Part shown: one piece after another, positions 6,358-44,250 of the stretch
How the letters are laid out: each line of letters starts with the position of its first letter
How positions within the stretch are numbered: position 1 is the first letter of the stretch
Sequence record: DRR378314_2501
DNA length: 60,508 nucleotides
Strand: one strand, 5' to 3'
Notes under the pieces: generated by a model
The model's database searches: none
The model's input: the letters and a program-made list of their open reading frames with translations, nothing else
Told to the model about the DNA's origin: nothing
Position numbers and translations under genes: made by a program

Positions 6358-6419
6358 GCGGCTTCTCCAAAGAATGGCGGGATCGGCGAGTGCCCCCGGC
6401 CCAATAGGCCGGACCGAGA

Positions 6420-7265: not shown

Positions 7266-7436
7266 GGCTGCAGTCTCCACCAAAGCTTCAAAACAATTGA
7301 CAAAGAGCATTCGACAAGGCTCACTTTGGGTCAAGTTATTGTTTTGTTGCTCGGTATTATTCGTTGCGGCATGCGTGGGATTGGTTCACAGTTCCAGTGG
7401 TACAAAAAACGCGTTGCCGACGGGGGTTAGTGAAGA

Positions 7437-8498: not shown

Positions 8499-8574
8499 TA
8501 GAAACTCATTTCCGGTTTGGCGCGACGGACCTCTTTCCCGCGCAGGATAAGAAATGACGAGCGAGGAGGCCTAG

Positions 8575-9090: not shown

Positions 9091-9109
9091 AATTTAAGGA
9101 GGGACACAC

Positions 9110-10606: not shown

Positions 10607-10683
10607 TTTTAGGTCGCGTATTTCAACTTCACTCGAAAACAACTTCGAACTCGAAAAATCATCTGATCTGAAAGGAATGAACA

Positions 10684-11184
10684 ATGGCTGCGAACATGTT
10701 TGTGCACATCTCCGACATCCCGGGCGACGCAACCGAAAAAGGTCACGATAAGTGGATCGTGATTCAGTCTCTGAGCTGGAATGTTGAGCGCGCCGTAGAG
10801 ATGTCCGATTTGGGCTCCACCCAGCGTGGTCACGCAAACTCCAACTTCGGCAAAGTCGAAGTGACCTCGCAAATGGGCATTGCCTCAAACAAGCTGGCGA
10901 CCTCCGTTGCCAACGGCACCGTGCGCTCAGAAATCAAGCTGCACATGTGTCGGTCCGGTGAAAGTGCGTCCGCGGGTCTGGAGGCATATTCGATCTGGAA
11001 GCTGAAGGACGTTGTCATCGACAGCTATTCCATCTCCGGCTCCGAAGACGGTATCCCAGAAGAAACCTGGACACTGGCCTATGCTGGGATTGAGCATGAG
11101 TACAAGTCCACCGACCAGAAGACTGCCAAGCTCAAGACAGAAAACACCTTCAAGTGGAATGTTCAGACCGGTCAGGTCGAATAA
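10684..11184 (+). CDS. hcp: T6SS tube protein Hcp (TssD)
   Basis: IPGDATEKGHDKWI...SLSW, L.DVVIDSYSISG, PEETWTL.YA.I..EY; position after tssC. Confidence 0.93.
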   Translation: MAANMFVHISDIPGDATEKGHDKWIVIQSLSWNVERAVEMSDLGSTQRGHANSNFGKVEVTSQMGIASNKLATSVANGTVRSEIKLHMCRSGESASAGLEAYSIWKLKDVVIDSYSISGSEDGIPEETWTLAYAGIEHEYKSTDQKTAKLKTENTFKWNVQTGQVE

Positions 11185-11209
11185 AACCGCAGGCTTGCGT
11201 GTTGTACTA

Positions 11210-11235
11210 GTCCCGGGCGTTTCGGTGCCCGGGAC
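11210..11235 (+). promoter_or_regulatory. GC-rich stem-loop with UUCG tetraloop downstream of hcp (mRNA stabiliser or partial terminator)
   Basis: GTCCCGGGCGT-TTCG-GTGCCCGGGAC, 9 Watson-Crick pairs plus 2 G-U pairs; no U-tract. Confidence 0.55.
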
Positions 11236-11277
11236 CACTCGCATTGAACTACACAGAGTTTCAGGGGGAAGCGCTTC

Positions 11278-12087
11278 GTGTCTATGACAGCACAAGAGCA
11301 TTTGAAGGCTGGTGATCCAGTTGCCGCCTTGTCGGCGCTGCAGGATGATGTCCGCAAGGACCCGTCCAACGCCAAGCTGCGCATTTTCCTGTTTCAACTG
11401 CTCTGTGTACTGGGAGACTGGAAGCGTGCGGTCACCCAGTTGAAGCTCTCGGCGGATATGGACGGTGCCGCGACCACAATGGCGCAGGCTTATCGCGAGG
11501 CGATCATTTGCGAAGTCTACCGTAGCAAGGTGTTCAAGGGTGAAAAAGACCCGCTGATCTTCGGCGAACCCGAAGAGTGGCTTGCTCTTCTGATCCAGGC
11601 ACAGAAAACTCTTGCCACAGGTCATCCCGAGCAGGCTGCGGAGATCCGAGCCCGGGCTTTTGCGACTGCGCCTGCCATGAGCGGCGAATTGAACGGCGCC
11701 CGCTTCGAGTGGATTGCCGATGCGGATATGCGGCTTGGCCCCGTGCTCGAAGTCATCGTGAACGGTCGCTATTTCTGGATGCCATTTTCCAAGATCGACA
11801 CTTTGGAGTTGGACGAACCAGCGGATTTGCGCGACGCGATCTGGATGGCAGGGACACTGACGCCAAAGGAGGGCGGCGCGTTGGCGGTTTTGGTGCCGAC
11901 CCGGTATCCCGGCAGCGTCGAGGCCGGCGGATTGGCGGCGCTGGCACGCTCTACGGATTGGGTCGAACTGGGTGCCGATGCTTTTGGTGGGGTGGGGCAG
12001 CGCGTTCTGGCCACCGATCAGGATGATACGGCGCTGATGGATTTGCGGCTGTTAAAGATGGACGGGGAGACGCCCGGCGATGGCTGA
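11278..12087 (+). CDS. tagJ: T6SS accessory protein TagJ (ImpE/SciE)
   Basis: VRKDPSNAKLRIFLFQLLCVLGDWKRA, FEWIADADMRLGPVLE...G.Y.W.PF, PTRYPG. Confidence 0.93.
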   Translation: MSMTAQEHLKAGDPVAALSALQDDVRKDPSNAKLRIFLFQLLCVLGDWKRAVTQLKLSADMDGAATTMAQAYREAIICEVYRSKVFKGEKDPLIFGEPEEWLALLIQAQKTLATGHPEQAAEIRARAFATAPAMSGELNGARFEWIADADMRLGPVLEVIVNGRYFWMPFSKIDTLELDEPADLRDAIWMAGTLTPKEGGALAVLVPTRYPGSVEAGGLAALARSTDWVELGADAFGGVGQRVLATDQDDTALMDLRLLKMDGETPGDG

Positions 12088-12577
12088 CAAGACCCTCGCC
12101 GAGCGCCTGCAGCCGTCCATGCTGGACCGGCTTACGGATGATGCGCCCAGCGAGCGGAAGGAAACCCGCGACTCTCGTGTGATAGATCTCGTACGCCTGC
12201 GTGAGATCATTCAGCGTGATCTCTCCTGGTTGCTGAACACCCAAAACGGTGGACACTTTATTGACGAAGAGCGTTTCCCCTCAGTGTCGAAATCTGTGCT
12301 GAATTTCGGGTTGCATGAAGTGACCGGAGAATTCACGGCCAAGGAAAAGATGCGCGAGATACGGGATTCCATTCGGGCGGCAATCCAAGCGTATGAACCG
12401 CGTATCATCGATGGATCGGTGGATGTGATGCTGGTCGATGCAGAGGACACAACGCAGATGACCGTCGCACTGGAGATCCGGGCGGATATGTGGGCACAAC
12501 CGATGCCGTTAGAGCTTTATCTGCGGTCTAAAGTTGATCTGACCACCGGAGAAATTCACATGGATCGGAGAGGCTGA
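12080..12577 (+). CDS. tssE: T6SS baseplate subunit TssE
   Basis: RLQPSMLDRLTDD, RDLSWLLNT, SVLNFGL, YEPRI. Confidence 0.95.
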   Translation: MADKTLAERLQPSMLDRLTDDAPSERKETRDSRVIDLVRLREIIQRDLSWLLNTQNGGHFIDEERFPSVSKSVLNFGLHEVTGEFTAKEKMREIRDSIRAAIQAYEPRIIDGSVDVMLVDAEDTTQMTVALEIRADMWAQPMPLELYLRSKVDLTTGEIHMDRRG

Positions 12578-12578
12578 C

Positions 12579-14456
12579 GTGGATACCAGGCTCCTGGAAC
12601 ATTACGAGACCGAGCTGAACTATCTGCGTGACATGGGCGCGGAGTTTGCTGCGGCCTATCCGAAGGTTGCGTCACGTCTGGGAATGGAAGGGGTCGAAGT
12701 GCTCGACCCCTATGTCGAGCGCTTGCTCGAAGGGGTGGCGTTCCTTTCGGCGCGGGTGCAGCTGGAATTGCAGCTGCAGTATCCGAACTTCACCTCCAAT
12801 CTGCTGGAGATCATCTATCCGCATTATCTGGCGCCGACGCCGTCGATGATGATTGCCCAGTTGGAGCCGGATATTTCGAACTCTGCTGTTAAAGCAGGCT
12901 ATAAGTTGCCACGGGGCACCGTTCTGAGATCCGGCCTGACCGATGGAATCCAAACCGCAATTGAGTTTCGCACGGCTGCTGATCTGACTCTATGGCCGAT
13001 CGAGATCGCCGAAGCGCAGTATATTGATGGACGCGGAGAATTGGTCGCGGCGGGTGTCGCGCAGGGATTTGATGCGCGAGCAGGGATACGATTGCGCTTG
13101 CGACGCAAAGATGGCGAGCCCATCCGCGAGCTTGATATGAATAGCCTGGGCCTCTACCTGACCAATGCAGCGGGAAACAGCTGGCCGCTTCTGGAACTGC
13201 TGTGCACGCAGGTCACGGGGGTGGTCGGACGGAGTACGGATCGGCGTGACGACTGGCAGGTGCCGCTGCGCGGTGCACAAGTCCGGCAGAAAGGATTTTC
13301 GCCCGAGGAAGCCCTGTTGCCGGTACCTCGACGTGTCTTTGATGGGTATCGCCTGCTTCAGGAATATTTCGCACTGCCGGAACGGTTCCGTTTTGTGGAG
13401 CTGACAGAGCTCAAACCCGCGATCCAGCAGGCCAAAGGTGCCGACGTCGATATCTATATCTTGCTGCGCGAAGGGATGAAGAACATCGATCCGATCATCG
13501 TCCCGGATGTGTTCGAACCGCATGCTGTTCCGGCTGTGAATCTGTTTGAAAAGCGCTGCGACCGTGTGCGTGTTCTGTCCAAGGACACCGAGCATCACGT
13601 CATCCCGAACCGAACTGCCGGGCTTGATTTTGAAATCTATGCATTGAAATCGGTGACAGGTATCAGTGGCGATGGTGAGGATGATGTGACCTTCAGGCCA
13701 TTCTATTCCGCAACCGATCTGACCGCCGCGGGAGAGGGACATCCGGCGTATTATACCCTGAAGCGCAAAATGCGTCAGCGCTCGGAAAAAGAACGTTTGC
13801 GCGGAGTGCGCTCGTCTTATCTCGGATCCGAGGTCTATTTGACATTGGTGGATCGGGCGCAGGCCCCCTATAGCGCGGGGTTGGAGCAACTGGCGGTCAA
13901 GGCGCTTTGTACCAACCGAGATCTGCCGATGCTGTTGGTCACCGGAAACGAAGATGTCTTTCATCTGCCAGATGGTGGGCCGGTCAAGAAGATCATATTG
14001 CCGATTTCTCCGACACGTCCGCATCCGACCCTAGCACAGGGTGATACGGCATGGCGGCTCATATCGCACCTCAGTCTGAACTACCTGTCCATCGCAGAGA
14101 GTGACAAGGGACAGTCTGCGTCAGCTCTGCGTGAGCTTATTGGCCTCTACGCACCGCTTGGGAACCGGGTAACCGAAAAGCAGCTCGAGGGCATCCTGTC
14201 GGTCTCAACTCGTCCTATTGTGCGCCGGATGAGCGATGAAGTTCTCTCTACAGCGGTGCGCGGAATTGAGGTCTCCCTCGGTTTCGACGAAAGCTATTTT
14301 GAAGGCACCAACATCTATGCGCTTGGTGCGGTGCTGGAGCGGTTTTTCCGCGGGTATGCCAGTATCAACTCCTTTACTGAAACTGTCTTGAAGACGGAAA
14401 AACGCGGGGAAATTGCGAGATGGCGACCAGAGAAAGGTCTCGGGCGCGTTCTGTGA
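12579..14456 (+). CDS. tssF: T6SS baseplate subunit TssF
   Basis: YETELNYLRDMGAEFAAAYPKVA.RL, DPYVERLLEG.AFL.AR, GYRLLQEYF.LPERF.F, WRLISHLSLNYLS, YASINSF. Confidence 0.96.
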   Translation: MDTRLLEHYETELNYLRDMGAEFAAAYPKVASRLGMEGVEVLDPYVERLLEGVAFLSARVQLELQLQYPNFTSNLLEIIYPHYLAPTPSMMIAQLEPDISNSAVKAGYKLPRGTVLRSGLTDGIQTAIEFRTAADLTLWPIEIAEAQYIDGRGELVAAGVAQGFDARAGIRLRLRRKDGEPIRELDMNSLGLYLTNAAGNSWPLLELLCTQVTGVVGRSTDRRDDWQVPLRGAQVRQKGFSPEEALLPVPRRVFDGYRLLQEYFALPERFRFVELTELKPAIQQAKGADVDIYILLREGMKNIDPIIVPDVFEPHAVPAVNLFEKRCDRVRVLSKDTEHHVIPNRTAGLDFEIYALKSVTGISGDGEDDVTFRPFYSATDLTAAGEGHPAYYTLKRKMRQRSEKERLRGVRSSYLGSEVYLTLVDRAQAPYSAGLEQLAVKALCTNRDLPMLLVTGNEDVFHLPDGGPVKKIILPISPTRPHPTLAQGDTAWRLISHLSLNYLSIAESDKGQSASALRELIGLYAPLGNRVTEKQLEGILSVSTRPIVRRMSDEVLSTAVRGIEVSLGFDESYFEGTNIYALGAVLERFFRGYASINSFTETVLKTEKRGEIARWRPEKGLGRVL

Positions 14457-15493
14457 CCCGGGATGAGGACAGCCTGTTCGATACGCTTGTCGATGCGCCG
14501 CAGGAACACCACCTGTTTCAGGCGCTGCGTGTGCTCGAGGCGCATTTCTCCGACCGTCCCCGTCTGGGCGAAAGTCGGCGCCCACGGCAGGATGCACTAC
14601 GTCTGGGTCAGGAAGCGGAACTGGCTTTCCCCCCGTCAACGATCGCGGACTTCAAGCCAGGTAGCGCCACCGGACCGGCGCGGCTGACCAATAGGTTCTT
14701 TGGGCTCTTCGGTCCATCAGGTCCACTGCCCTTACATATGACCGAATACGCGCGGGATCGTAAACGAAACCATCGCGACCCTACCATGATCGCGTTTGCA
14801 GATATGCTGACGCATCGGATGTTGAGCCTGTTGTACCGGGCGTGGTCGCAAGGCGCGCCAGCGGTCAGTTTTGATCGGGGCGATGATCCGATGGCGCGCA
14901 AGGTTGCCGCACTTTCGGGGTATCATGGCGATCACCTGCAGGATCGCGATGCCATGCCGGACATGGCGCGGTTGCATTATGCCGGGCATCTAGGTCAACA
15001 GGCGCGCAATCCCGAAGGTTTGGTGTCGATCCTGTCGTCCTTCCTTGAGGTCGAGGTCCGGCTGGAGGAATTCGTCGGGTCGTGGCTTGAGCTGGAGCCG
15101 GATGATCGCTGGAAACTCGGCATGGGATCGCTGGGGCAGACGACCTCGATCGGTGACAAAGTCTGGAGCCGATCCGCCAAATTTCGAATCCGGATCGGTC
15201 CGCTCTCACTTGCGGACTACGAACGTCTCTTGCCGGGTGGCCAAAGCCTTGAACGGGTGCGTGCGATCGTGCGCTCCTATGTCGGTGATTGCCTGGATTG
15301 GGATGTGAACCTCATCCTTGCCGGAGACGAGGTTCCGCGGGCCAGCCTTGGCGGAACAACTCGGCTAGGACACACCAGTTGGGTCAGAACACGTCCTGAC
15401 CCGGAGGTCGAGCGGTCAGATGCCGGCGATCTATACCTGTACCCTGCGCATGCCAGTGCGGGACATGATAATTCGACAGAGGGAAGGACCTGA
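14453..15493 (+). CDS. tssG: T6SS baseplate subunit TssG
   Basis: FFGLFGPSGPLPLHMTE, FADMLTHR..SL.YRAW, F.IRIGPL...Y..LLPG; GTGA overlap with tssF. Confidence 0.94.
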   Translation: MTRDEDSLFDTLVDAPQEHHLFQALRVLEAHFSDRPRLGESRRPRQDALRLGQEAELAFPPSTIADFKPGSATGPARLTNRFFGLFGPSGPLPLHMTEYARDRKRNHRDPTMIAFADMLTHRMLSLLYRAWSQGAPAVSFDRGDDPMARKVAALSGYHGDHLQDRDAMPDMARLHYAGHLGQQARNPEGLVSILSSFLEVEVRLEEFVGSWLELEPDDRWKLGMGSLGQTTSIGDKVWSRSAKFRIRIGPLSLADYERLLPGGQSLERVRAIVRSYVGDCLDWDVNLILAGDEVPRASLGGTTRLGHTSWVRTRPDPEVERSDAGDLYLYPAHASAGHDNSTEGRT

Positions 15494-15494
15494 T

Positions 15495-18215
15495 ATGACC
15501 GAGATCAGCCGTGTCGCCTTGTTTGGCAAGCTCAACAAACTGGGGTATCAGGCCGTCGAAAGCGCGACCGTCTTTTGCAAAATGCGGGGAAACCCCTATG
15601 TGGAACTGGTCCACTGGTTGCATCAGCTTCTGGCGCAGCAGGACAGCGATATTCACCGCATCATCACACATTACGAATTGGACATCGGCAAGATCGCGAC
15701 GGAGTTGACCCGAGCGCTCGACCAACTGCCGCGCGGCGCGTCGACGATTTCCGATCTCTCAGATCACCTGATGGACGCAATGGAACGCGGCTGGGTTTGG
15801 GGCTCATTGCTGTTCTCCGCCAGTCATGTGCGGTCGGGGCACCTGTTGCTGGGCATGCTGAAGACCCCCGCGTTGCGGAATATTCTCAGCACAATGTCGC
15901 CTGAGATCGCCCGCATCGGTGCGGATGATCTCGCGGATAATTTTGATAACGCGACCGACGGTTCACCCGAGGAGCAACTGGTTGCTCAGGATGGGTCCAG
16001 CGTCGGCGGCGGTGCGGTGCCGGGAGAGGCCTCCAGCGCGATGTCGCCCGGAGCGATGGGACAGGGCGAAGCGCTGGAGCAATTCTGCACTGATCTCACC
16101 GCGCAAGCAAAAGCTGGTGAGATAGATCCAATCGTGGGGCGGGATGAGGAAATCCGCCAGATTGTCGATATTCTGATGCGCAGACGTCAGAACAACCCGA
16201 TCCTGACTGGCGAGGCCGGTGTGGGCAAGACTGCGGTGGTTGAAGGATTTGCGCTGCGTATCGCGCGCGGCGATGTGCCCCCTGCGTTGCAAGAGGTGCG
16301 CTTGCTGGTGCTCGACGTGGGCTTGTTGCAGGCAGGTGCAAGCATGAAGGGTGAGTTCGAGAACCGCTTGCGGCAAGTGATTGATGAAGTTCAGGCCAGC
16401 CCGACACCCATCGTGATGTTTGTTGACGAGACGCATACTCTGGTCGGGGCGGGAGGTGCGGCTGGAACGGGAGATGCGGCCAACCTGTTGAAGCCAGCGC
16501 TCGCGCGCGGCACACTGCGCACGATCGGCGCAACCACATGGGCAGAATACAAAAAATATATCGAGAAAGACCCAGCTCTTACCCGCCGCTTTCAGGTAGT
16601 GAAGGTTGAAGAACCATCAATTCCAAAGGCGATTTTGATGATGCGCGGCATTGCCTCAATGCTGGAGCAACATCACCGCGTTCAGGTGCTCGACGAAGGT
16701 ATCGAAGCCGCCGTTGGGCTTTCGGCGCGGTATATTCCAGCCCGCCAATTGCCCGATAAATCGGTCAGCCTGCTCGATACCGCCTGTGCGCGCGTCGCAG
16801 TTAGCCAACATGCGGTTCCGGCTGAAGTGGACGACAGCCAGCGTCGGATCGAAGCTTTGAATACCGAACTGGAGATCATCGGTCGCGATGAAACCGCAGG
16901 CTATGAGGTGGCGGACCGGCGTGAGGCGGTGACCGTCGCAAAAGAGGCTGAGGAGCAACGTCTCGGGGTGCTTACCGCGCAGTGGGATAAGGAAAAGGCC
17001 TGCGTCGACGCGATCCTCGACCTGCGTGCCCAGCTGCGCGCCGGGGCCGCTCCGGTGGATTCGGTAACAAACGCGGCTGAAGCCGACGCTGCGGATGCCG
17101 GCAATAGCCCACTGTCAGACGAGGACCGGGCAAGCCTCATGGCCGATCTTAAGGCAAAGAATGCCGAATTGGACACGCTACAGGGCGACAGTCCGCTGAT
17201 CCTGCCCATTGTCGATCACCAAGCTGTTGCTGCGGTGGTGGGGGATTGGACTGGCATTCCCGTGGGGCGTATGGTCAAGGACGAGATCCAGACCATTCTC
17301 AGCCTCGAAGAACACCTGGCGAAGCGCGTGATTGGCCAGGATCATGCGATGAAGATGATTGCCAAGCGCATTCAAACCAGCCGAGCAGGACTCGACAATC
17401 CCAACAAACCGATCGGGGTGTTCATGCTGGCAGGGACCTCAGGTGTCGGGAAAACCGAGACGGCACTGGCGCTGGCGGAAGTCATGTACGGAGGTGAACA
17501 AAACGTCATCACCATCAATATGTCCGAATATCAGGAGGCACATACGGTTTCTTCACTGAAGGGCGCGCCTCCGGGGTATGTCGGATATGGCGAGGGCGGC
17601 GTTTTGACAGAAGCCGTGCGGCGCAAGCCCTATGCTGTGGTGTTGCTGGATGAGGTGGAAAAAGCCCACCCGGATGTACATGAGATCTTTTTCCAGGTGT
17701 TTGACAAGGGCGTGATGGAAGACGGTGAGGGCCGTGTCATCGACTTCAAGAATACGCTGATCTTGCTCACCACCAATGCGGGCTCGGACATGGTGATGGA
17801 CATGTGCTCCGATCCGGACCTTTTGCCGGAGCCCGATGGGCTGGCAAAGGCGTTGCGCGACCCGCTTCTGAAAGTGTTCCCACCAGCCCTGCTAGGGCGC
17901 ATGGTGACAATCCCATACTATCCGCTGTCGCCGGACATGATCGCCGAAATTACCAAATTGCAGCTGGGTCGGATCAAGAAACGTGTCGAAACCGCACATG
18001 GCGTGCCCTTCACGTACTCCGATGCCGTGGTCGACACGATCGTGGAGCGCTGTCAGGAGCTTGAAAGCGGGGGCCGCATGATTGACGCCATCGTCACCAA
18101 CTCCATGCTGCCGGATATTTCGAACGAATTCCTGCGCCGCTTGATGGAAGGGCAGCAGGTAACAACCGTCAGCATCGACGTGGACAATGGTGAATTCACC
18201 TATGGCTTCGACTGA
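15495..18215 (+). CDS. tssH: T6SS AAA+ ATPase TssH/ClpV
   Basis: [28 protein letters not shown], second Walker [30 protein letters not shown]. Confidence 0.97.
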
Positions 18216-18257
18216 TCGTTGCAGGTCGGGCCGACCAGGCACAACCGCCGACCTTGC

Positions 18258-18269
18258 GGGGGGGGGGGG
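18258..18269 (+). repeat. Homopolymeric G12 tract in the clpV / sodium-channel intergenic region
   Basis: 12 consecutive G read directly from the sequence. Confidence 0.8.
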
Positions 18270-18388
18270 CGTAAAACCGGTTTTCGCCTGAGGGCGGGAG
18301 CCACGGGCCAAACCGGCCGGGCAAACAATACCGCTGCGGCGGGGCTTCCTGGCAATGGGAAGCCGAGAAGGACCAGGGAGACGAAACT

Positions 18389-19246
18389 GTGTCAGACATG
18401 ACCGCCAGCCCGACGTTCGGGAGCCGCGCATGGGCCCAAGCCGTAATTGAACGTCCTGCCGTGACCCATGCAATTCTTGGCGTGATCATCTTTAATGCCG
18501 TGACGCTTGGTCTTGGTACATCGGAAGTCGTGCGCACTCACTTTGGCGGATTGCTTGATGTCATCGACAGCATCGTGCTGACGATTTTCGTGGTTGAGCT
18601 TGCGCTGAAGCTCTATGCCTATGGGCTGCGTTTCTTTTCCTCCGCCTGGAATGTGTTTGATCTGGTCGTGGTTGCCGTTGGCATGCTGCCGGACCGGCAA
18701 GGATTGTCGGCGTTGCGAGGGTTGCGTGTGTTGCGCGCCATGCGATTGCTGTCGGTGATCCCGCAAATGCGTGCCGTGGTTCAGGCCCTTCTGGATGCGC
18801 TGCCCGGCATGGGGGCGGTGATCGTGATGATCTCGATCGTGTTCTACATTTTTGCAGTGATGGCGACGCTGATGTACGGGCCCGCATTTCCAGAGTGGTT
18901 CGGTACGCTTGGCCGATCACTCTATTCGCTGTTCCAGATCATGACACTGGAGAGTTGGTCGATGGGGATTGTGCGACCGGTGATGGAGGTTTTCCCCTAC
19001 GCCTGGGCGTTCTTTGTGCCATTCATTGTGGTGACCGCATTCTCTGTGCTCAATCTCTTCATCGGTTTGTTGGTCAATACCATGCAGTCCGCGGTGGAAG
19101 AGGAAACAGAGGCAGAAATTCACAAGTTGCGTGACCTGGTTAAGTCAGAAACGGACGTGGTGGGTGATCATGTTGTCGAATTGCGCGATGAGATCCGCGC
19201 GCTGCGGGCTGAAGTTGCAGCGATGAGGGAAGACAAAAATGGCTGA
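18389..19246 (+). CDS. Bacterial voltage-gated sodium channel (NaChBac/BacNaV family, Ion_trans)
   Basis: Six TM segments; S2 IFVVEL.LK, S3 WNVFD, S4 LRGLRVLRAMR (RxxRxxRxxR), pore helix and filter SLFQIMTLESWSMGIVRP, S6 LNLFIG, C-terminal coiled coil. Confidence 0.96.
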   Translation: MSDMTASPTFGSRAWAQAVIERPAVTHAILGVIIFNAVTLGLGTSEVVRTHFGGLLDVIDSIVLTIFVVELALKLYAYGLRFFSSAWNVFDLVVVAVGMLPDRQGLSALRGLRVLRAMRLLSVIPQMRAVVQALLDALPGMGAVIVMISIVFYIFAVMATLMYGPAFPEWFGTLGRSLYSLFQIMTLESWSMGIVRPVMEVFPYAWAFFVPFIVVTAFSVLNLFIGLLVNTMQSAVEEETEAEIHKLRDLVKSETDVVGDHVVELRDEIRALRAEVAAMREDKNG

Positions 19247-22200
19247 TAGCTCGCAAAAATTTGTTGCCCGTAATCGCGCACCACGTGTTCAGATTGAATA
19301 TGATGTCGAACTCTATGGTTCGGAGAAAAAGGTTCAGCTGCCCTTCGTTATGGGGGTCATGTCGGATCTGACAGGGAAATCGAAACAGCCTCAACCGGCA
19401 ATAGCGGACAGAAAGTTCCTTGAAATTGATGTCGACAATTTCGACGAACGGATGCGCTCCATGGCGCCACGCGCTGCCTTCAACGTTCCAAATACACTGA
19501 CTGGCGAAGGTAATATCGCAGTTGACCTCACGTTTGAGAGCATGGCCGATTTTACCCCCGGTGCCATCGCGTCCAAAGTGGATGCTCTACGGCCGCTTTT
19601 AGAGGCACGCCAACAGCTCGAGCAGCTGATGACGTATATGGATGGTAAATCCGGTGCCGAAGAACTGATCGAAAAAATCCTTAAGTCACCCGCATTGTTG
19701 TCATCGCTTGCAGGGGAAACAGACGAAGCGCGCGCAGAGGGCGAAGCTGCGTTGCAAGGGCTGCGTGAGATTGAACTGCCTGTCGAGGACTTGGGGCCGA
19801 CGCACCAGGACGTACTTGGGACGATGGAGGGGCAGGTATCGGAAGAGTTGCCATCCGAAGACCCCTCTATCGGGATTCTCGCCGGGCTGAGCGGCTCCGC
19901 CCCGAATGCGGATACAAAGGAGGATGACACCCGTGACATCCTGACTTCGCTCGCCTCGACTGCTCCAGAGGACAAGCCCGCGGCAACAGGTGTTGCGGAG
20001 ACTCTTTCGGACCTTGCTGCAGCAGCACCAGAGACGTCAGCTGAGGAGGATCGCAGCCAGGCTGTGCTGTCATCCCTGGCGGAGCAACGCACCGAGGTTT
20101 CTGAAGAAGACCGATCCATGGACGATGCGCTCAATGCGCTCGGAGATTCGGCAGATGCTGACATTCCGGATACTGACACGGCGGCGGAAATTCTGGGTAG
20201 TCTTACGCCTCCTGCCACGGCTGAAGACATCAATGAAGGAGACGGTTCAGCGGAAGTCCTTGCCGAATTGGCGACGCAGCAACCGCCGGCCCGGGACGCG
20301 CCTGTTGACGCGGATCAAGTTCTGCAAGGGCTTGATGCGCCCGAGGTCCCGGTAGCTGCCACAGCCGGTGTCGATGATGTCCTCGCAGGGCTGGACACCA
20401 TCGAAGAGGAAACGCCTGATCCAGAGATGGATTTGAGCACTGTTCTTGGTGAGTTCGAAGCGACAGAGGCGACAGAACACTCAAACTTCGATGAAGTTCT
20501 GTCAGGTCTGGAGCCTGCCGTCGTGGACGACGACGAGGCAGCGACGAACCTTGATGATTTGCTTGGAGAACTCGAGACGCCAGAGCCCGAACCTGATACG
20601 AAAGTTGCGGATGTGCTGGCTGATATTGATGTGGCAGCGGAGTCCGCTGAGGAAACCCAGCCCGACCTTACGACGATGCTAGATGATGTCCCCGCTGCGC
20701 AGGAGGAGGGTACCAGTGCAGAGGATGTGTTGCCAGGACTGGGCGCTGTGACCGAGGTCGCTGAGAGCAGTGATGTCGATCTCGAAGATCTGCTGGGAGA
20801 CACGCCGCCACCTGAAGCGGACACTGGCAGCGGTGCCGATGACACCTTGGCAGGGTTGGACATAGTTGAGGACGACGCGCCGAGCGCAGACCTCGACCTT
20901 GAGGATATGCTTGGCGATCTGGATATAGCCGAGCCAGAAGACGCGCTGGGTGCGGATGACATTCTGTCCTCGCTCGACCTTTCGGACGATGCGAGCGATG
21001 ATGGTGTTGATAGCGTCACCTCCGACGGGCTTTCAGGGTTGGTCGCAGATGATACCCCGACGCCTGATCCTTTAGCTGATGCAGAACTCTCACTGGATCT
21101 GGACGATCTGTTCAGCGATTCATCAGATACAAATTCCGGTCCCGCACAAGGCAGCGACCACGACGTCAATGACCTCGACCTTGATACGCAGATCCCGAGC
21201 GATAACGGTGCGCTTGATGATGAATTTGATCTCGATGCGCTGCTCGCAGATGAGCCAGCGACAGATGATACTACGACGCGCCGGGATGATTTGGTGGCGA
21301 TGGACGAGAAAACATCCGAGATCACCGATGTTCCGGCCGAGGCCGGCGCGGGGGATGGTCTGGATGATCTCCTGGAAGGTCTCGGAATTGACGAAAACCC
21401 GGGAGATGATGACGATGACCTCGATGCACTGTTCGGTGCTCTGGACCAAGAAGTCGCGGCGGATGATAGCAGCGATTCTGATGCTCTTGACGCCCTCTTG
21501 GGGGATCTGGAAGGCGACGTAGAAGACCTTGATGTCATGTTGGAGGACCAGAGCATAGCAACAGGGTCCGAGCAGCCCGGAGCTGGAATACAGCACGAAC
21601 CGGAGCTTGCCTACGGCACAATGTCCACAGCGCGCCCAAATCCGCAGAAACTGGAACGCAAGCGGTTTCGGATGGCGGTTTTCGGTGATTTCACCGGCCG
21701 CGCGGCCAAGGGACAATTGGAGATCGGAGACACCCTGGCAAACCGCAAACCTATGGTTCTTGATCCCGATACCTTTGAAGAGGTGATTGAGAGCTTCGCC
21801 ACTGAGCTGGTCCTGCCAATCGGCAAGGATGGCGCAGGGATTTCGGTCAAACTCGGGGAGTTCGATGATCTCCATCCGGATGAGCTTTTTGACAACGTGG
21901 AGCTATTTGCCGAACTGATCAGCCTGCGCGCACAACTTCAGAATGGTGTCACCAAAGATCGCGCAATGACAACGCTCACTACATGGGCCGAAGCGCATGG
22001 TACGCCCGCGCGCGCGCCGAAATCCCGATCTGGTGGCAATGTGGTGCCCGCGGACAAACGGCTCAGTGATTTCCAAATGTTGATCGGGAACAGTGCGAAT
22101 AGCCTCCGTACGGCCTCTCCGGTCGAGGAGATGCTTGCGCGAGTGGTTGGTCCGCACATTCGCGCATTGCCCGCCCCGAACCTTGGCGCAATGCAGGAAG

Positions 22201-23312
22201 CGGTGGATCTGGCACTTTCCGATGCGATGCGGTTGGTGCTGCACCATCCGGAGTTCCAGTTGATCGAAGCCCAGTGGCGTTCGCTGGATCTTATGCAGCG
22301 TTCGGTTGAGGTCGATGATACGCTTGAAGTCATGCTGTATGACGTTTCGGCAGAGGAGCTCGCCGCGGATCTCGCCACTCATGAAGATCTATCCGAATCC
22401 GGGTTTGTACGGCTGCTGACGGAAGCCCCAATGGATGAAGAGAATGGACGTGGGGCCTATTCGGCGATGCTCGGCCTCTATACGTTTGAGGAAACCCCGC
22501 CTCATGCGGAACTTTTGGGGCGTATAGCGCGCGTGGCTGCGCATGTGGATGCGCCTTTCCTGGCTGCAATCACTCCGGGATTTTGGGACACGGTCAAATT
22601 GGATCGTCCCAAAGTCGTAGCTGACGCCTGGAACACTCTGATGGGCATGCCCGAAGCTGGACACCTTGGCCTGTTGACGCCGCGTTTCCTGTTGCGGCGC
22701 CCCTATGGTGCAAAGAGCGAACCTATCGATCCATTTGATTTCGAAGAGTTTACCCAATCCGCAGGCTTGCGTGGTATGCTTTGGGGAAATCCTGTCGTGC
22801 TGGCTGGGATATTGATGGCGAAGTCCTTCAAGGAGAATGGTCCTTCGCTTCAGCTGGGCTCTATTATGTCGCTCGGCGAGATGCCGTATCACTACGTGAA
22901 TGATCGCTTTGGCGATCAGGTCGCGCTGCCCTGTACTGAACGCAACGTGGATCTGGACAAGATCGCTATTGCAAAAGAGCGCGGGTTCATGCCGATTGCC
23001 TCTGTCCGCGGACGCGACGAAATTCGATTGACCTCGTTCAATTCTCTGCGCGGAGATATGCTTCTCGGCCCTTGGATCGGAGAACCGGCACCCCAGCCAT
23101 CGCCGCCTGACCCAAGGCAAGAGCAGACCACATCAGATCCAGTGAACACAGGCGACGAGGATGATCTGGGACTGGATTTGGATTTTGACGACAACGGTGA
23201 GAGCGCCGATGATGATCTCGACGCGCTGCTCGCTGGTTTTGATGATGATGACGATACTGATTTAGACGGCGATATCGATGCCGACCTTGAGGCACTTTTG
23301 AATGACCTATGA
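19239..23312 (+). CDS. Giant sheath fusion protein: TssB + acidic repeat linker + TssB-like + truncated TssC-like domain + acidic tail
   Basis: aa 1-158 about 80% identical to TssB at 8575 (manual alignment); from about aa 807 RFRMAVFGDFTGR...LDPDTFEEV...FDDLHPDEL (TssB-like); LVLHHPEFQLIEAQWRSL, AAHVDAPFL, PRFLLRRPYG (TssC-like). Confidence 0.85.
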   Translation: MADSSQKFVARNRAPRVQIEYDVELYGSEKKVQLPFVMGVMSDLTGKSKQPQPAIADRKFLEIDVDNFDERMRSMAPRAAFNVPNTLTGEGNIAVDLTFESMADFTPGAIASKVDALRPLLEARQQLEQLMTYMDGKSGAEELIEKILKSPALLSSLAGETDEARAEGEAALQGLREIELPVEDLGPTHQDVLGTMEGQVSEELPSEDPSIGILAGLSGSAPNADTKEDDTRDILTSLASTAPEDKPAATGVAETLSDLAAAAPETSAEEDRSQAVLSSLAEQRTEVSEEDRSMDDALNALGDSADADIPDTDTAAEILGSLTPPATAEDINEGDGSAEVLAELATQQPPARDAPVDADQVLQGLDAPEVPVAATAGVDDVLAGLDTIEEETPDPEMDLSTVLGEFEATEATEHSNFDEVLSGLEPAVVDDDEAATNLDDLLGELETPEPEPDTKVADVLADIDVAAESAEETQPDLTTMLDDVPAAQEEGTSAEDVLPGLGAVTEVAESSDVDLEDLLGDTPPPEADTGSGADDTLAGLDIVEDDAPSADLDLEDMLGDLDIAEPEDALGADDILSSLDLSDDASDDGVDSVTSDGLSGLVADDTPTPDPLADAELSLDLDDLFSDSSDTNSGPAQGSDHDVNDLDLDTQIPSDNGALDDEFDLDALLADEPATDDTTTRRDDLVAMDEKTSEITDVPAEAGAGDGLDDLLEGLGIDENPGDDDDDLDALFGALDQEVAADDSSDSDALDALLGDLEGDVEDLDVMLEDQSIATGSEQPGAGIQHEPELAYGTMSTARPNPQKLERKRFRMAVFGDFTGRAAKGQLEIGDTLANRKPMVLDPDTFEEVIESFATELVLPIGKDGAGISVKLGEFDDLHPDELFDNVELFAELISLRAQLQNGVTKDRAMTTLTTWAEAHGTPARAPKSRSGGNVVPADKRLSDFQMLIGNSANSLRTASPVEEMLARVVGPHIRALPAPNLGAMQEAVDLALSDAMRLVLHHPEFQLIEAQWRSLDLMQRSVEVDDTLEVMLYDVSAEELAADLATHEDLSESGFVRLLTEAPMDEENGRGAYSAMLGLYTFEETPPHAELLGRIARVAAHVDAPFLAAITPGFWDTVKLDRPKVVADAWNTLMGMPEAGHLGLLTPRFLLRRPYGAKSEPIDPFDFEEFTQSAGLRGMLWGNPVVLAGILMAKSFKENGPSLQLGSIMSLGEMPYHYVNDRFGDQVALPCTERNVDLDKIAIAKERGFMPIASVRGRDEIRLTSFNSLRGDMLLGPWIGEPAPQPSPPDPRQEQTTSDPVNTGDEDDLGLDLDFDDNGESADDDLDALLAGFDDDDDTDLDGDIDADLEALLNDL
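19715..21560 (+). repeat. Degenerate protein-level repeats (about 20-aa period, core h-D/E-D/E-h-L-x-x-L) forming the acidic linker; boundaries approximate
   Basis: TRDILTSL, MDDALNAL, AAEILGSL, ADQVLQGL, VDDVLAGL, FDEVLSGL, LDDLLGEL, LEDLLGD, LEDMLGDL, LDDLLEGL, LDALLGDL and others. Confidence 0.75.
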
Positions 23313-23384
23313 ATTTGTAGTCCGAAACTCTTTACCCAGGGCTGAGGCGCGCCTCGCCGGTGCTCGGGACAGAAAGGAGAAGCC

Positions 23385-25577
23385 ATGACCGAAAGTAAAG
23401 CCCATGAAAATGACGTCGTTTGGATGTCTGGGTCTTATTCGGTAAAAGGGCTTATGATGCGCCGCGCCATTGTGCGTGAAGGATTGAGCAAACTTACCGA
23501 GACGACGATCGAATTCCAATCTCGCAACTCCGCCGTGTCGCTCGATGACCTAGTGGGGCAGACCATGAACCTGCATGTCGTGACCGAGGGGGGGAAGGAA
23601 CAGAAGTTTTCCGGACTTTGCATCTCGGTCGAAAATTTCGGGTTTCGGGACGGCTATACTCAGTTCGTGGCCGAAGTCAGGCCATGGTTCTGGCTGTTGA
23701 CCCGAACCGAAGACTGCCGGGTGTTCCAGAACATGTCGGCTCCGGATATCATCAAACAGATCCTGTCGGAGCACGGGTTCTCCGACTACAAAGACAGCTT
23801 GTCCAGTAGCTACGAGAAACGTGAATACTGTCTGCAGTACCGAGAGAGCGACTACGCCTTTATCTGTAGATTGATGGAAGAGGAGGGGGTTTATTTCTTC
23901 TTTGACAGCAACACCAGCCAGTCAACTGCAGAAAAGCTCGTTTTTGCGGATGGTCTCAGTGCTCACAAGCCGATCAGTGAAAGTGCCACTGCGGAGTTCA
24001 ACATTCGCGACGACGCAGATCGACGCCGCAAGGAACATGTGGCCGAGCTGAGCAAGGTCGAGCAGGTCACCCGCGGAAAGGTCACTCTCAACGACTTTGA
24101 TTTCAACACACCGCAGGCCGACCTCAAGGTGAGCGACGCACAATCCAAGGGTAAGCATCAGTACAAGACGTTTGAGGTCTATGACTATCAGGCACACTAC
24201 AGGAAAGAGACAGGGCTGGGCACCGGGTTTGCCCGGGCGCGCATGGACGCGGAAGCGCTGACCTATCAACAATGGCGCGGGGCGTCCTCTCTACGGACCA
24301 TGGGGGCTGGCTATACCTTCAAGCTGACCAAGCATGACGATACGGATGCCAACAAGGACTTCCTTGTGGTTGAGGCTACGCATTACCTGAAAGTCGACAG
24401 CGAGTTTGGCGAAAGGGACCGCGGTGCCAAGAAGGGCGGCAGCTCCGAAGAAATGCGCCGTGATTTGAAGGCGCAGAACCTCGACTTTCCGAAAGAAGCT
24501 GAGAAAGACAGTTATGCCAACACCTTTCGGGTGGTCGAAAAGTCGGTACAGTACCGTGCTCCTCGTGTGACCCCATGGCCTGAGGTGCCAGGCATCCAGA
24601 CGGCCACCGTTGTGGGCAACTCGGGCGAGGAGATTCTGACCGACGAACACGGCCGGGTGAAAATTCAGTTCCACTGGGATCGCGAAGGCAAAAAGAATGA
24701 AACCTCTTCATGTTTCGTACGGGTGATGACACCTTGGTCGGGCAAGGACTGGGGTATGGTCGCGGTGCCACGCATCGGCCAGGAGGTCGTCGTACAATTC
24801 GAAGATGGCAACCCGGATCGCCCGATCGTCACCGGCATGCTTTACAATGCCGAGACGAAACCACCGTTTTCATATCCCGACGACCAGACGCAATTGGGCA
24901 TCAAGACCAATTCCTCAAAGGGCGGTGGCGGCTATAACGAATTGATGTTTGATGACAAGGCAGGTGCTGAGCTAATGCGCATTCAGGCGCAGAAGTATCA
25001 TCAGACCCTGGTCAAAGACCGATTATCGATGACCGTAGGCCTAGACGCCATTGATAAGGCCGTCGCCTCCGTCGATGAAAACTCCTACGATCTCACGATC
25101 GAGCAGAACATGAACGAAACGGTCAAGACTGGTGACCGGACCGAAATTGTCGAAACGGGCAACAAGATCGAAACGGTGAAGACGGGAAACTACACGGAGA
25201 CCATTGAAACCGGCGACAAGACGATGACCATCGAAACGGGTAACCTGACGGAGAGTATCGATACCGGTGACGTGGAGGTGACCATCGGTCAGGGCAGTCT
25301 GACAGAGACCATAAGCCAGGGCAATCATACGGAAACCGTGAGCCTTGGTGATATCACCACTGAAGCATCGGCTGGGAAGATCGCGATCTCCGCCGGAATG
25401 GAAATCACGCTGACGGTAGGAGGGTCGTCGATTAAAATCGACAACTCGGGTGTTACGATAAGTGGTCCGATGATCAAGTTGTCGGCTGATGGGATGCTGG
25501 AAGCGAAATCCCCGCTGACAACCGTCAAGGGCGATGGAATGCTGACCCTCAAGGGCGGCGTCACCATGATCAACTAG
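23385..25577 (+). CDS. vgrG: T6SS spike protein VgrG without an evolved effector domain
   Basis: REYCLQYRESDYAFICRLMEEEG.YFFF, GIQTATVVG..GEEI.TDEHGRVKIQFHWDR, PRIGQEVVV.F.DG.PDRP, NELMFDDK.G.E. Confidence 0.96.
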   Translation: MTESKAHENDVVWMSGSYSVKGLMMRRAIVREGLSKLTETTIEFQSRNSAVSLDDLVGQTMNLHVVTEGGKEQKFSGLCISVENFGFRDGYTQFVAEVRPWFWLLTRTEDCRVFQNMSAPDIIKQILSEHGFSDYKDSLSSSYEKREYCLQYRESDYAFICRLMEEEGVYFFFDSNTSQSTAEKLVFADGLSAHKPISESATAEFNIRDDADRRRKEHVAELSKVEQVTRGKVTLNDFDFNTPQADLKVSDAQSKGKHQYKTFEVYDYQAHYRKETGLGTGFARARMDAEALTYQQWRGASSLRTMGAGYTFKLTKHDDTDANKDFLVVEATHYLKVDSEFGERDRGAKKGGSSEEMRRDLKAQNLDFPKEAEKDSYANTFRVVEKSVQYRAPRVTPWPEVPGIQTATVVGNSGEEILTDEHGRVKIQFHWDREGKKNETSSCFVRVMTPWSGKDWGMVAVPRIGQEVVVQFEDGNPDRPIVTGMLYNAETKPPFSYPDDQTQLGIKTNSSKGGGGYNELMFDDKAGAELMRIQAQKYHQTLVKDRLSMTVGLDAIDKAVASVDENSYDLTIEQNMNETVKTGDRTEIVETGNKIETVKTGNYTETIETGDKTMTIETGNLTESIDTGDVEVTIGQGSLTETISQGNHTETVSLGDITTEASAGKIAISAGMEITLTVGGSSIKIDNSGVTISGPMIKLSADGMLEAKSPLTTVKGDGMLTLKGGVTMIN

Positions 25578-25586
25578 GCATGAAGA

Positions 25587-26219
25587 ATGGCTGATATGTT
25601 TGAAAAACTGGTGAAATTGCCAAAAGAACCGGTCGCGAAGATCCTCTCGCGTCAGCAGGTTCTGTTGAAAACGCCCCTCAAGTGCGAGGTCAGCGCTACG
25701 GCGCCTGTTGTACTTAAGGAGCTTTATGAAAAAGCGGCGATGATCGACCTGTTGCGGTTGATGGGCATCCTGCTTCCTCCGCGTGAGCGGGTGTGGTGGG
25801 CCTGTTTAGCTGCTCGCGATTATATCGGTCCGCGTGGACCCAAGGATCCGCCCTCACTCATCACCTCTGAGGCTTGGGTTCTAGACCCTACCGAGGACAA
25901 CCGCCAAGCGGCCCGGATCACGATCGATCATGCCTATGTGGACGATGATACGGTGAACTGTGCCTGGGCCGTGACCTATCACGACGGGACTTTGGGGCCG
26001 GGCGATTTGCGTCAATATCCCGCTCCTGCTGGTGCGGCAGAGGCCGCGGCATTCGCCATGAATATGGTAGCCTTGGGACATTTATCTGATAAGTTTGAAG
26101 AGCATGGCTATATTCTCATCGAACGTGCGCTGGATATCGCACGCGGTGGCAATGGGCGTGTTGGTTCTGCAAGTGCAGAGCTGGCCGACGCACCGAAAAC
26201 CGCTTCGGAACAATCTTAG
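25587..26219 (+). CDS. vgrG-associated conserved protein (resembles DUF6931 family)
   Basis: LLPPRERVWWACL, WV..PTE.NR..A, C-terminal IERALDIA.GG; position after vgrG; family name from memory, needs HMM check. Confidence 0.7.
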   Translation: MADMFEKLVKLPKEPVAKILSRQQVLLKTPLKCEVSATAPVVLKELYEKAAMIDLLRLMGILLPPRERVWWACLAARDYIGPRGPKDPPSLITSEAWVLDPTEDNRQAARITIDHAYVDDDTVNCAWAVTYHDGTLGPGDLRQYPAPAGAAEAAAFAMNMVALGHLSDKFEEHGYILIERALDIARGGNGRVGSASAELADAPKTASEQS

Positions 26220-26242
26220 GTCCGAATAGGAGAAACGACGAC

Positions 26243-26329
26243 ATGGGCAGACCCGCTCTTGAGGGGAACAGGCGTGCTGGCACGGCTCACCACCGATCTG
26301 GCGAGCGGGAGGCATTTTCATGGGCGTAA
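26243..26329 (+). pseudogene. Possible 5' remnant of a PAAR gene (28-codon mini-ORF starting MGRPA)
   Basis: AGGAGA RBS at 26228-26233, ATG GGC AGA CCC GCT; sits where PAAR would be expected; stop overlaps the tagH start. Confidence 0.3.
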
Positions 26330-27831
26330 GGCTGCGTTTCCAATCGTCCGGTGCGATGCCGTCCGATGCCGCGCCTTTGATCCTGCGTGGACCCAGTCTG
26401 ACAATTGGGCGCGGAGCAACAAATGATATTGTGCTACCGGATCCCGACCAGATGCTATCGCGCAATCACTGCGTGATCGAGGACCATGGCAGCCATGTGG
26501 CCGTTGTCGATCTGAGTTCGAACGGTACTTTCCTGAATTATGGAAAGATGCCGCTGGGGCCGACGCCGACACCTCTGAATGATGGAGATGTTCTGACGGT
26601 TGGGTCTTATGAACTTGCCGTAGAAATTACGCAGGATGCGGCGTTGCCAGATCCGCTGGCCGTTGCGCCTCTTGATGCAGACCCAATGTCTCCGGGGCGT
26701 GCTGAGAATGCACCTGACCCGCTGGCTTTGCTCGATGATGCAGGGCCGGGCGGTGATTTTCTGGATGATTTACTTGGTGAGCGCGCGCCAACGGGGCCGT
26801 CGCAACTCAACCCGGTTGATCCAATTGATGATCTGCTGCCCCCGATGGGTGATGAAGAAGACCCTTTTTTCCAGAAACCAGACGCGGGTCGGCAAGGCCA
26901 TGGGGCAAGCTTGCCCGCGCACAACCCCGCGACGCAGGATGGGTTTAGTCCTCAACAGTCGCCCAGAGCCGACAGCGTGATCCCGGATGATTGGGACGAT
27001 GAGTTCTTTTCCGGAATCGGCGGCGGCACTCCACCTGCGGTCTCTCAGAATCCGGTCGCCACGCCTCAGATAACACAGCCTCCTGCCTCTGAGCCTGAGC
27101 CTGAGCCTACCGTGCCCGGTCTTGATGATGATCCTTTTGCCGAACCAGCCGAGGCCGCCGAAGATCCCCAAACCGCGCCGGCGAAACCAGTTGTCCCCAG
27201 CAAGCCCAAACCCGAAGCGAAAGTAGCTGATCGCGCGCATGATCACGCGGGGGCATTCATTGATGCGCTCCAGGTTGAGCAGCTGACGCTGGAAGAGAGT
27301 GATCTCGAACCGGTGATGGAGCGGATGGGGCGTGTCATGCGGACGTTCATCGTGGGCTTGCGCGAAATTCTAATGACCCGGACCTCGATCAAATCTGAAT
27401 TCCGGATCGAGCAGACCATGATTTCGGCCGGGGGCAACAACCCCCTGAAGTTCTCGATTTCGCCGGAGCAGGCGATCGAGGCGATGGTCAAGCCGCGCGC
27501 GCGAGGGTATCTGGATGCAGAGGCCGCTGCAGAGGAAGCACTGCGCGACATCAAAGCTCATGAGGTCGCGATGGTGACCGGTATGGAAGCTGCGTTGAAG
27601 GGCATTCTGGCCAAGCTTGATCCCAAACTTCTGGAGGGTCAGATCGAAAAGCGAGGCGGGCTAGGGGGGCTGCTGCGCAACAAGAAAGCCCAATATTGGG
27701 ACATTTACGAAGAACATTACGCAGAAATCTCTGATCAGGCGGAAAACGAGTTTCACGATCTGTTCAGCCGGGAGTTCGCGCGCGCTTACAAAGCGCAGAT
27801 GGATCGATTGAAAGAAGACGTCGACACTTAG
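26320..27831 (+). CDS. tagH: T6SS FHA-domain protein TagH/Fha
   Basis: FHA motifs LTIGRG...D..LPDP...SR.HC, D.SSNGTFLN; C-terminal NNPLKFS, DI.AHE.A...GM.AAL, F.REFARAY. Confidence 0.94.
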   Translation: MGVRLRFQSSGAMPSDAAPLILRGPSLTIGRGATNDIVLPDPDQMLSRNHCVIEDHGSHVAVVDLSSNGTFLNYGKMPLGPTPTPLNDGDVLTVGSYELAVEITQDAALPDPLAVAPLDADPMSPGRAENAPDPLALLDDAGPGGDFLDDLLGERAPTGPSQLNPVDPIDDLLPPMGDEEDPFFQKPDAGRQGHGASLPAHNPATQDGFSPQQSPRADSVIPDDWDDEFFSGIGGGTPPAVSQNPVATPQITQPPASEPEPEPTVPGLDDDPFAEPAEAAEDPQTAPAKPVVPSKPKPEAKVADRAHDHAGAFIDALQVEQLTLEESDLEPVMERMGRVMRTFIVGLREILMTRTSIKSEFRIEQTMISAGGNNPLKFSISPEQAIEAMVKPRARGYLDAEAAAEEALRDIKAHEVAMVTGMEAALKGILAKLDPKLLEGQIEKRGGLGGLLRNKKAQYWDIYEEHYAEISDQAENEFHDLFSREFARAYKAQMDRLKEDVDT

Positions 27832-27863
27832 GTGTCAGCCCGTCGCAGAGAGAGGAGAGCCAG

Positions 27864-29204: not shown

Positions 29205-29226
29205 ACGCGGCTGAAGGAGTAAGCCA

Positions 29227-35604: not shown

Positions 35605-35622
35605 GAGATCCATGCATTCAGA

Positions 35623-44249: not shown

Positions 44250-44250
44250 A

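Follow-up and report, generated by a model that had tools for sequence, protein, structure and literature searches.

Bacterial voltage-gated sodium channels (BacNaVs) are among the best-studied channel structures, while their cellular role is almost unknown. One BacNaV, NaVBP of alkaliphilic Bacillus, reportedly has a role in motility and chemotaxis. In type VI secretion systems (T6SS), firing decisions are, to our knowledge, understood in only few species, and we know of no T6SS with a voltage-gated ion channel among its inputs. The H1-T6SS of Pseudomonas aeruginosa employs post-translational sensing by TagQRST-PpkA-Fha. The roseobacter T6SS cluster was described as H1-like (PMC9515649). The same publication describes TssCL, a single long protein with two VipA domains and one VipB, encoded beside normal tssB/tssC and reported solely from the T6SS clusters of roseobacters (Suria et al., 2022, PMC9515649). 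Here, we analyzed a stretch of 60,508 nucleotides from sequence record DRR378314_2501 (the window), in which a T6SS cluster with tssCL holds a BacNaV gene directly upstream of tssCL (Table 1). The explanation that we favor, with a probability of about 0.55, is that a functional voltage-gated sodium channel (NaV) acts jointly with TssCL as an accessory sensor or regulator of this T6SS. Comparing the locus with the described systems, both likenesses and differences became visible. Like the H1-T6SS, the window cluster carries ppkA, pppA, fha and tagF, and a membrane sensor feeding into the firing decision is an established idea; the difference lies in the candidate sensor, which in the window cluster is a voltage-gated ion channel. 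NaVBP resembles the proposed arrangement as a BacNaV feeding into a cellular machine, but belongs to another lineage, has another partner and shows no gene-level coupling to secretion.

First-pass annotation of the window, made from the sequence alone, had read an intact BacNaV with four S4 arginines and a TLESWSM filter, and Pfam, alignments to solved structures and the motifs confirmed that the gene encodes an intact BacNaV. Ion_trans covered residues 25–238 (3.8e-39), with PKD_channel as the only other Pfam match. The best solved match was 5hvx_A (2.3e-79 over query residues 19–262); others were 3rvy_A (9.1e-74), 6p6w (labelled NavAb) and NavAb entries at about 1e-73, with an alignable span of residues 19–262 or 19–274. 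The protein shows the single-domain Ion_trans architecture of BacNaVs, consisting of an S1–S4 sensor and an S5–S6 pore; its filter is of the Na+ type, and every third position of S4 carries an arginine, four in all. With the solved BacNaVs, i.e., 3rvy/NavAb and the 5hvx/6sx5 group, which we take to be NavMs, it shares the six-transmembrane single domain, TLESWSM, the arginines of S4 and a helical tail at the C-terminus, whereas it differs from them by its place in a separate Rhodobacterales paralog clade. Aligning 33 sequences of this clade, N36, D60, F67, E70, D91, R110, R113, R116 and R119 were found invariant. By analogy with NavAb, the first five of these presumably are countercharges and the hydrophobic plug of the charge-transfer center in S1–S3. 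A filter of the TLESW(S/A)(M/S) type was tied to Na+ selectivity in PMC7041947. Searching NCBIfam with the channel gave no match, so no recognised Tss/Tag family model was hit. The GTG start was invariant in the window and 7 of 7 close relatives aligned, while an ATG at codon 4 was not kept. In the spacer upstream of it, GGAGA, a short gap and GTGTCAGA were invariant in the same eight sequences and the remainder was unconserved. This pattern of conservation supports translation from the GTG and a ribosome-binding site of the channel gene's own. The full match to solved channels and the conservation in 80 of 80 related loci (see below) place the channel observation far beyond chance.

The 8-nt overlap of the channel stop with the start of the TssB fusion gene, reported in the first-pass annotation, is real, and this overlap, taken there as a sign of translational coupling, is conserved. 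Channel stop and TssB-like start overlapped in 80 of 91 T6SS-type loci (window included); the overlap measured 8 nt in 44 loci, 4 nt in 25, 1 nt in 5, 11 nt in 5 and 14 nt in 1. Gaps of 3–7 nt were found in 4 further loci, and in another 4 no ATG was found by the script. For 3 of the 91 (L077, L088 and L089) no TssB-like start was present within 400 nt of the channel stop. In L077, the channel overlaps by 4 nt a 593-amino-acid VipA2+VipB gene without TssB-like head and linker, a shorter form of TssCL that we call TssC2. In L089, a gap of 51 nt separates the channel from a 632-amino-acid VipA2+VipB gene. The channel of L088 (genome G160) is placed between hcp and tagJ and shares 17 nt with tagJ. 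A hidden frameshift fusion of channel and TssCL was excluded, since overlaps of −1, −4, −8, −11 and −14 nt give differing relative frames between loci; such variation points to a termination-reinitiation geometry instead. Coupling by termination-reinitiation, by which the channel would be made together with TssCL or TssC2, is the best explanation of the junction.

The gene downstream of the channel agrees with the published definition of TssCL and is accompanied by a separate tssB (8575) and tssC (9110) in the same cluster. Its N-terminus (residues 1–170) is VipA/TssB-like (TIGR03358, 211.6 bits), followed by an acidic linker, a second, degenerate VipA stretch, a VipB N-terminal domain (residues 987–1270) and an acidic tail. 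The VipB part reached 129 bits with TIGR03355, below the cutoff of 271.5. An AlphaFold2 model of residues 901–1357 was of moderate quality (mean pLDDT, the predicted local distance difference test, 59.9), had P. aeruginosa TssC1 (5n8n_B, 1.3e-19) as best match and, at the level of a model, confirmed a TssC-like fold for this part. The linker of about 620–730 residues contains 28% Asp+Glu and 3% Lys+Arg and has a net charge of −176, counted for a cut at residues 171–900 in which the acidic run ends near residue 790 (19749–21650 corresponds to residues ~171–800). It is rich in short repeated acidic-hydrophobic motifs (DDLLGEL, DALLGDL, DVLAGLD), and its length differs widely among relatives, with open frames from about 1000 to 2050 amino acids. 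The tail (residues 1291–1357, 23109–23309) has a net charge of −27. VipB_2, the Pfam model of the C-terminal gp25-like domain, was present in TssC and not seen in TssCL, by which TssCL may end a sheath instead of extending it. Three forms of the second sheath gene were observed, namely short VipA2+VipB without channel, short with channel and long TssCL with channel (the loci concerned being L096 from G092, L097 from G062, L077, L089 and L088). They look like a stepwise history, with the order of events not settled by the tree.

The architecture of the window gene is that of TssCL as published; new is the channel as constant upstream partner of tssCL. The figure legends of that source use grey for genes classed as "other", which have no T6SS role (PMC9515649), and its main text contains 0 occurrences of "channel", "ion trans" and "sodium". 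The name TssCL was met in no other open-access literature than this paper. A structure-based complex prediction for channel residues 226–285 with TssCL residues 1–170 and 901–1357 gave a score of 0.00 (mark 0.34); run without alignments and with an uncertain partner fold, it weighs neither for nor against binding.

Two kinds of sodium channels exist side by side in Rhodobacterales. The close relatives of the window's organism G001, G002 and G003 each hold one T6SS-type channel (85–90% identity to the window channel) and a second channel elsewhere (50–54%). This second, stand-alone NaV is of the same family with the same filter, but is only 50–60% identical to the window channel and has an ordinary chromosomal context in G001, where it comprises 261 amino acids and lies between tRNA methyltransferase and YkuD genes. 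In a tree of 115 channels, 92 T6SS-linked rows formed their own branch with a Shimodaira-Hasegawa-like approximate likelihood ratio test (SH-aLRT) value of 99, and 20 stand-alone rows formed another with a value of 100; three plasmid channels served as outgroup and the root was weakly supported. A 53-row tree gave ultrafast bootstrap/SH-aLRT values of 100/100 and 100/99 for the two groups. For 18 of the 20 stand-alone rows, covered by 1.6 kb each, the label relies on the contig not being one of the T6SS contigs or on the genome having no TssC match, while the stand-alone channels of G001 and G223, available with 8-kb flanks, had no T6SS gene beside them. The phylogeny proposed in the first-pass annotation accordingly came out as anticipated, with the T6SS-linked channels as one clade apart from the stand-alone Roseobacter channels (100/100): they are a separate paralog clade that, among the loci examined, occurred nowhere but in T6SS clusters. 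NavSp1 and other characterised channels of the Roseobacter group probably fall into the stand-alone clade. TLESWSM and the four S4 arginines were kept in 91 of 91 T6SS-type sequences, a count that leaves out the one decayed copy described below, and likewise in 20 of 20 stand-alone sequences. A total of 27 positions consistently separated T6SS-type from stand-alone channels. Using the Nei-Gojobori method (NG86), ratios of nonsynonymous to synonymous substitution rates (dN/dS) of 0.03–0.22 were obtained in 11 of 12 pairs, several of these having a dS near saturation, while one pair remained without estimate due to saturated dS.

A further difference between the paralogs concerns the cytoplasmic C-terminal domain: that of the T6SS-type channel exceeds its stand-alone counterpart by about 20 residues, is well conserved to about residue 275 and contains the invariant residues T231, M232, Q233, A235, V236, E237, L247, L250, E254, T255, V262, E268 and R273. 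Such an extension would also suit a structural membrane partner or anchor of TssCL, for example a docking site for the sheath end, with conduction secondary or irrelevant. Matched synthesis, suggested by the stop/start overlap, and the absence of the gp25-like domain from a TssCL that may end the sheath are in line with an anchor as well. However, an anchor needs neither the filter nor the four gating charges found in every one of the 91 sequences, and the channel of G160 does not adjoin the TssC2 gene, so that we consider a purely structural role quite unlikely.

The distribution of the channel was analyzed in three collections. Among species-representative genomes, 386 stretches encode a relative of the channel, of which the best 80, with 69–90% identity, were examined. 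For these best 80 of 386, T6SS genes flanked the channel in 80 of 80, and clpV upstream and a TssB-like start downstream were found wherever the contig reached. Locus L078, from a metagenome-assembled genome labelled Granulosicoccus (Gammaproteobacteria), shows the full arrangement with a channel nesting among Paracoccaceae sequences in the tree, either by a binning error or by transfer. Within the plasmid collection 41 records matched the channel, 21 of them at 60–80% identity and all of these from Rhodobacterales. Plasmids of Leisingera aquaemixtae, Ruegeria conchae and Qingshengfaniella alkalisoli carry tssH, a hypothetical gene, an "ion transporter", a long "sheath large subunit" and tssI. 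The same order is present on plasmid pW43D of Parasedimentitalea marina (L004, 1–10153), but with channel, sheath-like gene and vgrG all broken. L004 was the only decayed copy seen, with internal stops in the channel, the sheath-like gene split into several open reading frames and a truncated vgrG; its cluster appears to be eroding as a whole. A Phaeobacter plasmid matched at the level of the channel itself (H27, 76.7% identity). More distant channels of Peteryoungia, Skermanella and Microvirga (44–53% identity) do not lie beside T6SS genes.

In a census of 401 Rhodobacterales genomes, a NaV match was found in 327, with bimodal identities. T6SS-type channels were present in 37 of the 401 genomes (59–90% identity, E ≤7.5e-97), the other matches lying near 52–60%, with about 55% as the overall figure for the non-T6SS copies. 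Searching the same genomes with the TssCL C-module, 40 had a high-identity copy and 54 more an ordinary TssC only. All of the 37 genomes with a T6SS-type channel also carry TssCL/TssC2. In 30 of these genomes both genes share a contig and lie at most 6 kb apart. In 2 they occupy the two ends of a single contig, as a circular replicon would allow, and in 4 they are split between contigs, with a contig end about 1 kb away from three of the four channel copies. The remaining genome (G160) has 7.4 kb between channel and sheath-like gene. Seven borderline channels (54–61% identity) had no T6SS gene within 8 kb and were 73–78% identical to the stand-alone group versus 50–56% to the T6SS group. The position of the channel inside T6SS clusters and its joint occurrence with them from genome to genome are those expected of a T6SS accessory. 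The first-pass annotation had named an insertion unique to this strain as an outcome that would speak against its proposal; with 80 of 80 among the best 80 of 386 relatives, 37 of 401 genomes and several plasmids, this outcome did not materialize.

The census also bears on a housekeeping or self-protective role, in which Na+ re-entry or repolarisation would help under envelope stress or against depolarising effectors of sister cells, the machine itself not being controlled. A filter and sensor conserved as in a working channel agree with such a role, and so does the dispensability of the channel in some related T6SS clusters. Against it, G001–G003 already hold a second NaV and at least one NaV match occurs in 327 of 401 genomes. 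Moreover, a copy for general homeostasis needs neither the conserved overlap with tssCL nor the co-occurrence with TssCL/TssC2 in 37 of 37 genomes. We regard this role as unlikely, though deserving to be kept in mind.

The T6SS genes around the channel lie on the plus strand in the order tssA, tssB, tssC, hcp, tagJ, tssE, tssF, tssG, clpV, channel, tssCL and then vgrG, DUF6931, fha, tssK, tssL, tssM, tagF and pppA, with ppkA on the minus strand. Of the first-pass placement of the channel between clpV and vgrG, the common orientation of clpV, channel, fusion gene and vgrG on the plus strand was retained, while a direct neighborhood to vgrG was not, as the fusion gene intervenes and a 173-nt spacer follows clpV. 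The true start of clpV is probably M26 (nt 15495), right behind the tssG stop at 15493; its relatives align only from residue 20–26 onward. A weak consensus scan of 17900–19500 yielded 0 promoter-like sites and 3 weak terminator-like sites against 1.8 expected, all within the channel reading frame and none inside the clpV-channel spacer.

Table 1. Positions of the channel, its parts and the surrounding T6SS genes in the window.
Feature	Position	Strand	Basis
Whole T6SS cluster	7437..37806	.	Pfam scans
clpV/tssH, T6SS AAA+ ATPase	15420..18215	+	Pfam AAA_2 9.2e-54, AAA_lid_9, ClpB_D2-small, Clp_N
clpV-channel spacer, 173 nt, G12 run at 18258-18269	18216..18388	+	
Shine-Dalgarno-like GGGAGAC before channel GTG	18376..18382	+	Spacer alignment
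BacNaV of T6SS type, 285 aa	18389..19246	+	Open frame, GTG start
S4 voltage sensor RGLRVLRAMR, arginines R110, R113, R116, R119	18716..18745	+	Sequence, alignment
Selectivity filter TLESWSM, residues 186-192	18944..18964	+	Motif reading; aligns with same motif in 5hvx
Cytoplasmic C-terminal domain, residues 226-285	19064..19243	+	Alignment; conserved within clade
Stop/start overlap channel/tssCL, 8 nt, ATGGCTGA	19239..19246	+	tssCL ATG at 19239, channel TGA ends 19246
tssCL, 1357 aa	19239..23312	+	Pfam, NCBIfam, composition
vgrG/tssI	23385..25577	+	Phage_GPD 7.4e-83, Gp5_trimer_C, Phage_base_V

Between clpV and channel lies a slot that contains no gene in the window or its nearest relatives, while most relatives hold 1–3 hypothetical genes there. 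In Leisingera and Ruegeria, a single K/A/E-rich helical protein of about 411 amino acids is encoded; Ruegeria sp. L037 has three genes. Overall, the slot proteins of relatives comprise 316–525 amino acids and are K/A/E-rich and apparently all-helical (L001 7699–8934; L037 5584–9924), and a Pfam scan of them gave nothing significant. The slot genes may be cargo or effector-related. Two other explanations of the channel start from this slot. As a passenger, the channel would have entered the ancestral cluster by a single insertion and been carried along without a T6SS role, which fits with the variable slot next to it, with related clusters lacking it and with the absence of a T6SS family model covering it. 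But the channel is intact with low dN/dS over at least 91 loci of many genera, its sole decayed copy sits in a decaying cluster, a second, different position within the cluster is realized in G160, and among the loci examined it was never seen outside a T6SS context. A passenger is therefore very improbable in our judgement. The channel could also act in the manner of an immunity protein against an effector whose gene occupies the slot, as hypothetical genes lie directly upstream of it in Leisingera, Ruegeria and Qingshengfaniella. This we hold to be improbable in the extreme: in the window and its close relatives the channel is present but slot genes are not, immunity genes normally vary with their effectors while the channel is 69–90% identical among the best 80 of the 386 relatives, and the coupling is to the downstream tssCL and not to the upstream genes.

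Adjoining tssA, a divergent operon on the minus strand (2957–7334) encodes an ExbB/MotA-like protein, an ExbD-like protein, a DUF4384/BON-like protein and two proteins that match no family; it was also seen in the loci L118, L119, L120 and L122. Its marker gene (5935–6420) was found at an identity of at least 49% in 41 of the 401 Rhodobacterales genomes, 29 of them channel carriers and 12 not, and was missing from 8 of the 37 channel carriers. Among the 12 marker genomes without channel, 10 were checked and had the marker within 2–6 kb of a TssC match. A specific tie of the operon to the channel, considered on the basis of a small sample (4 of 5 versus 0 of 2), was dropped after the counts in 401 genomes. 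These counts suggest that, whether or not a channel is present, T6SS of this type may generally have an ion-driven, stator-like accessory in the ExbB/ExbD-like pair.

How the channel might work as regulator or sensor can be outlined as follows. A depolarisation by cell contact or attack that triggers or tunes firing had already been proposed in the first-pass annotation. Sea water would provide a large inward Na+ gradient, so that an open channel would admit Na+ and depolarise the membrane further. The inner membrane might become depolarised when the cell is attacked, when its envelope is damaged or when its energy state shifts, and this would move the four-arginine S4 and open the pore. Na+ entry, or the sensor movement itself, would then modulate T6SS assembly or firing via TssCL, which could enter the sheath by its TssB-like N-terminus and bears the extremely acidic linker. 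The invariant filter and gating charges suggest that conduction and voltage sensing matter; from the sequence we infer Na+ conduction in vivo and, likewise, an action on the T6SS and the direction of its effect. A clade confined to T6SS clusters, long kept and apparently made in step with TssCL/TssC2, renders a T6SS role much likelier than that of a passenger, while the existence of related T6SS clusters without the channel marks it as an accessory and not as a core part. A more specific version is an electrically gated T6SS, in which depolarisation would open the NaV and the local Na+ influx would act directly on the polyanionic TssCL in the sheath or capping it, triggering or blocking contraction; this version is attractive, but must be called rather unlikely.

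We are fully aware that several observations weigh against a regulator or sensor. In G092 and G062, clpV is followed directly by a short VipA2+VipB (TssC2) gene and vgrG, with no channel. A third genome, G178, has the sheath-like gene without a T6SS-type channel; its contig ends there. Twelve genomes have a marker-linked T6SS without T6SS-type channel or TssCL. Due to shared ancestry, the 91 of 91 sequences with intact filter and gating charges represent fewer than 91 independent observations. Distances of the channel correlated with those of TssCL parts (Mantel r of 0.64 for the C-module and 0.52, with 0 of 2000 permutations as high), but any neighboring genes would give such a sign of co-inheritance. 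The slot upstream of the channel, with 0–3 unrelated hypothetical genes, is a region of gene turnover, and the channel with its own ribosome-binding site could be regulated apart from clpV. Finally, no sequence feature indicates a route from Na+ entry or sensor movement to the sheath machinery.

Some further observations concern the remainder of the window. The interval between DUF6931 and fha measures only about 100 nt (26219–26320), leaving no room for a PAAR gene there, the rest of the window not having been searched for PAAR; in the Leisingera, Ruegeria and Qingshengfaniella plasmids a PAAR gene occupies this position. Both T6SS flanks encode Peptidase_C14 caspase-domain proteins (1388–2938, plus strand; 39446–40984, minus strand), one of which bears Sel1 repeats and a peptidoglycan-binding domain, and OmpA-family and M15 peptidase genes adjoin. 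The left-hand pair is conserved in G001 and G340. About 3 kb past the T6SS region cheD, cheB, cheA, cheW and cheR are located, followed by ABC transporters and BioY/CbiQ genes (41141–47709).

The channel family and TssCL are already known, whereas in the open-access literature searched we met neither a dedicated T6SS-linked clade nor its constant pairing with TssCL, and no paper linking NaV to the T6SS. The published but unexplained TssCL hereby gains a constant partner, and the "ion transporter" shown as an unrelated gene in cluster maps may belong to the system. If electrical gating were true, it would represent an excitable-membrane trigger of a contractile injection system and the first defined job of a BacNaV outside Bacillus. 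The T6SS-confined channel paralog offers a concrete system for testing, in culturable and non-pathogenic marine bacteria, whether membrane voltage or Na+ flux feeds into a contractile weapon.

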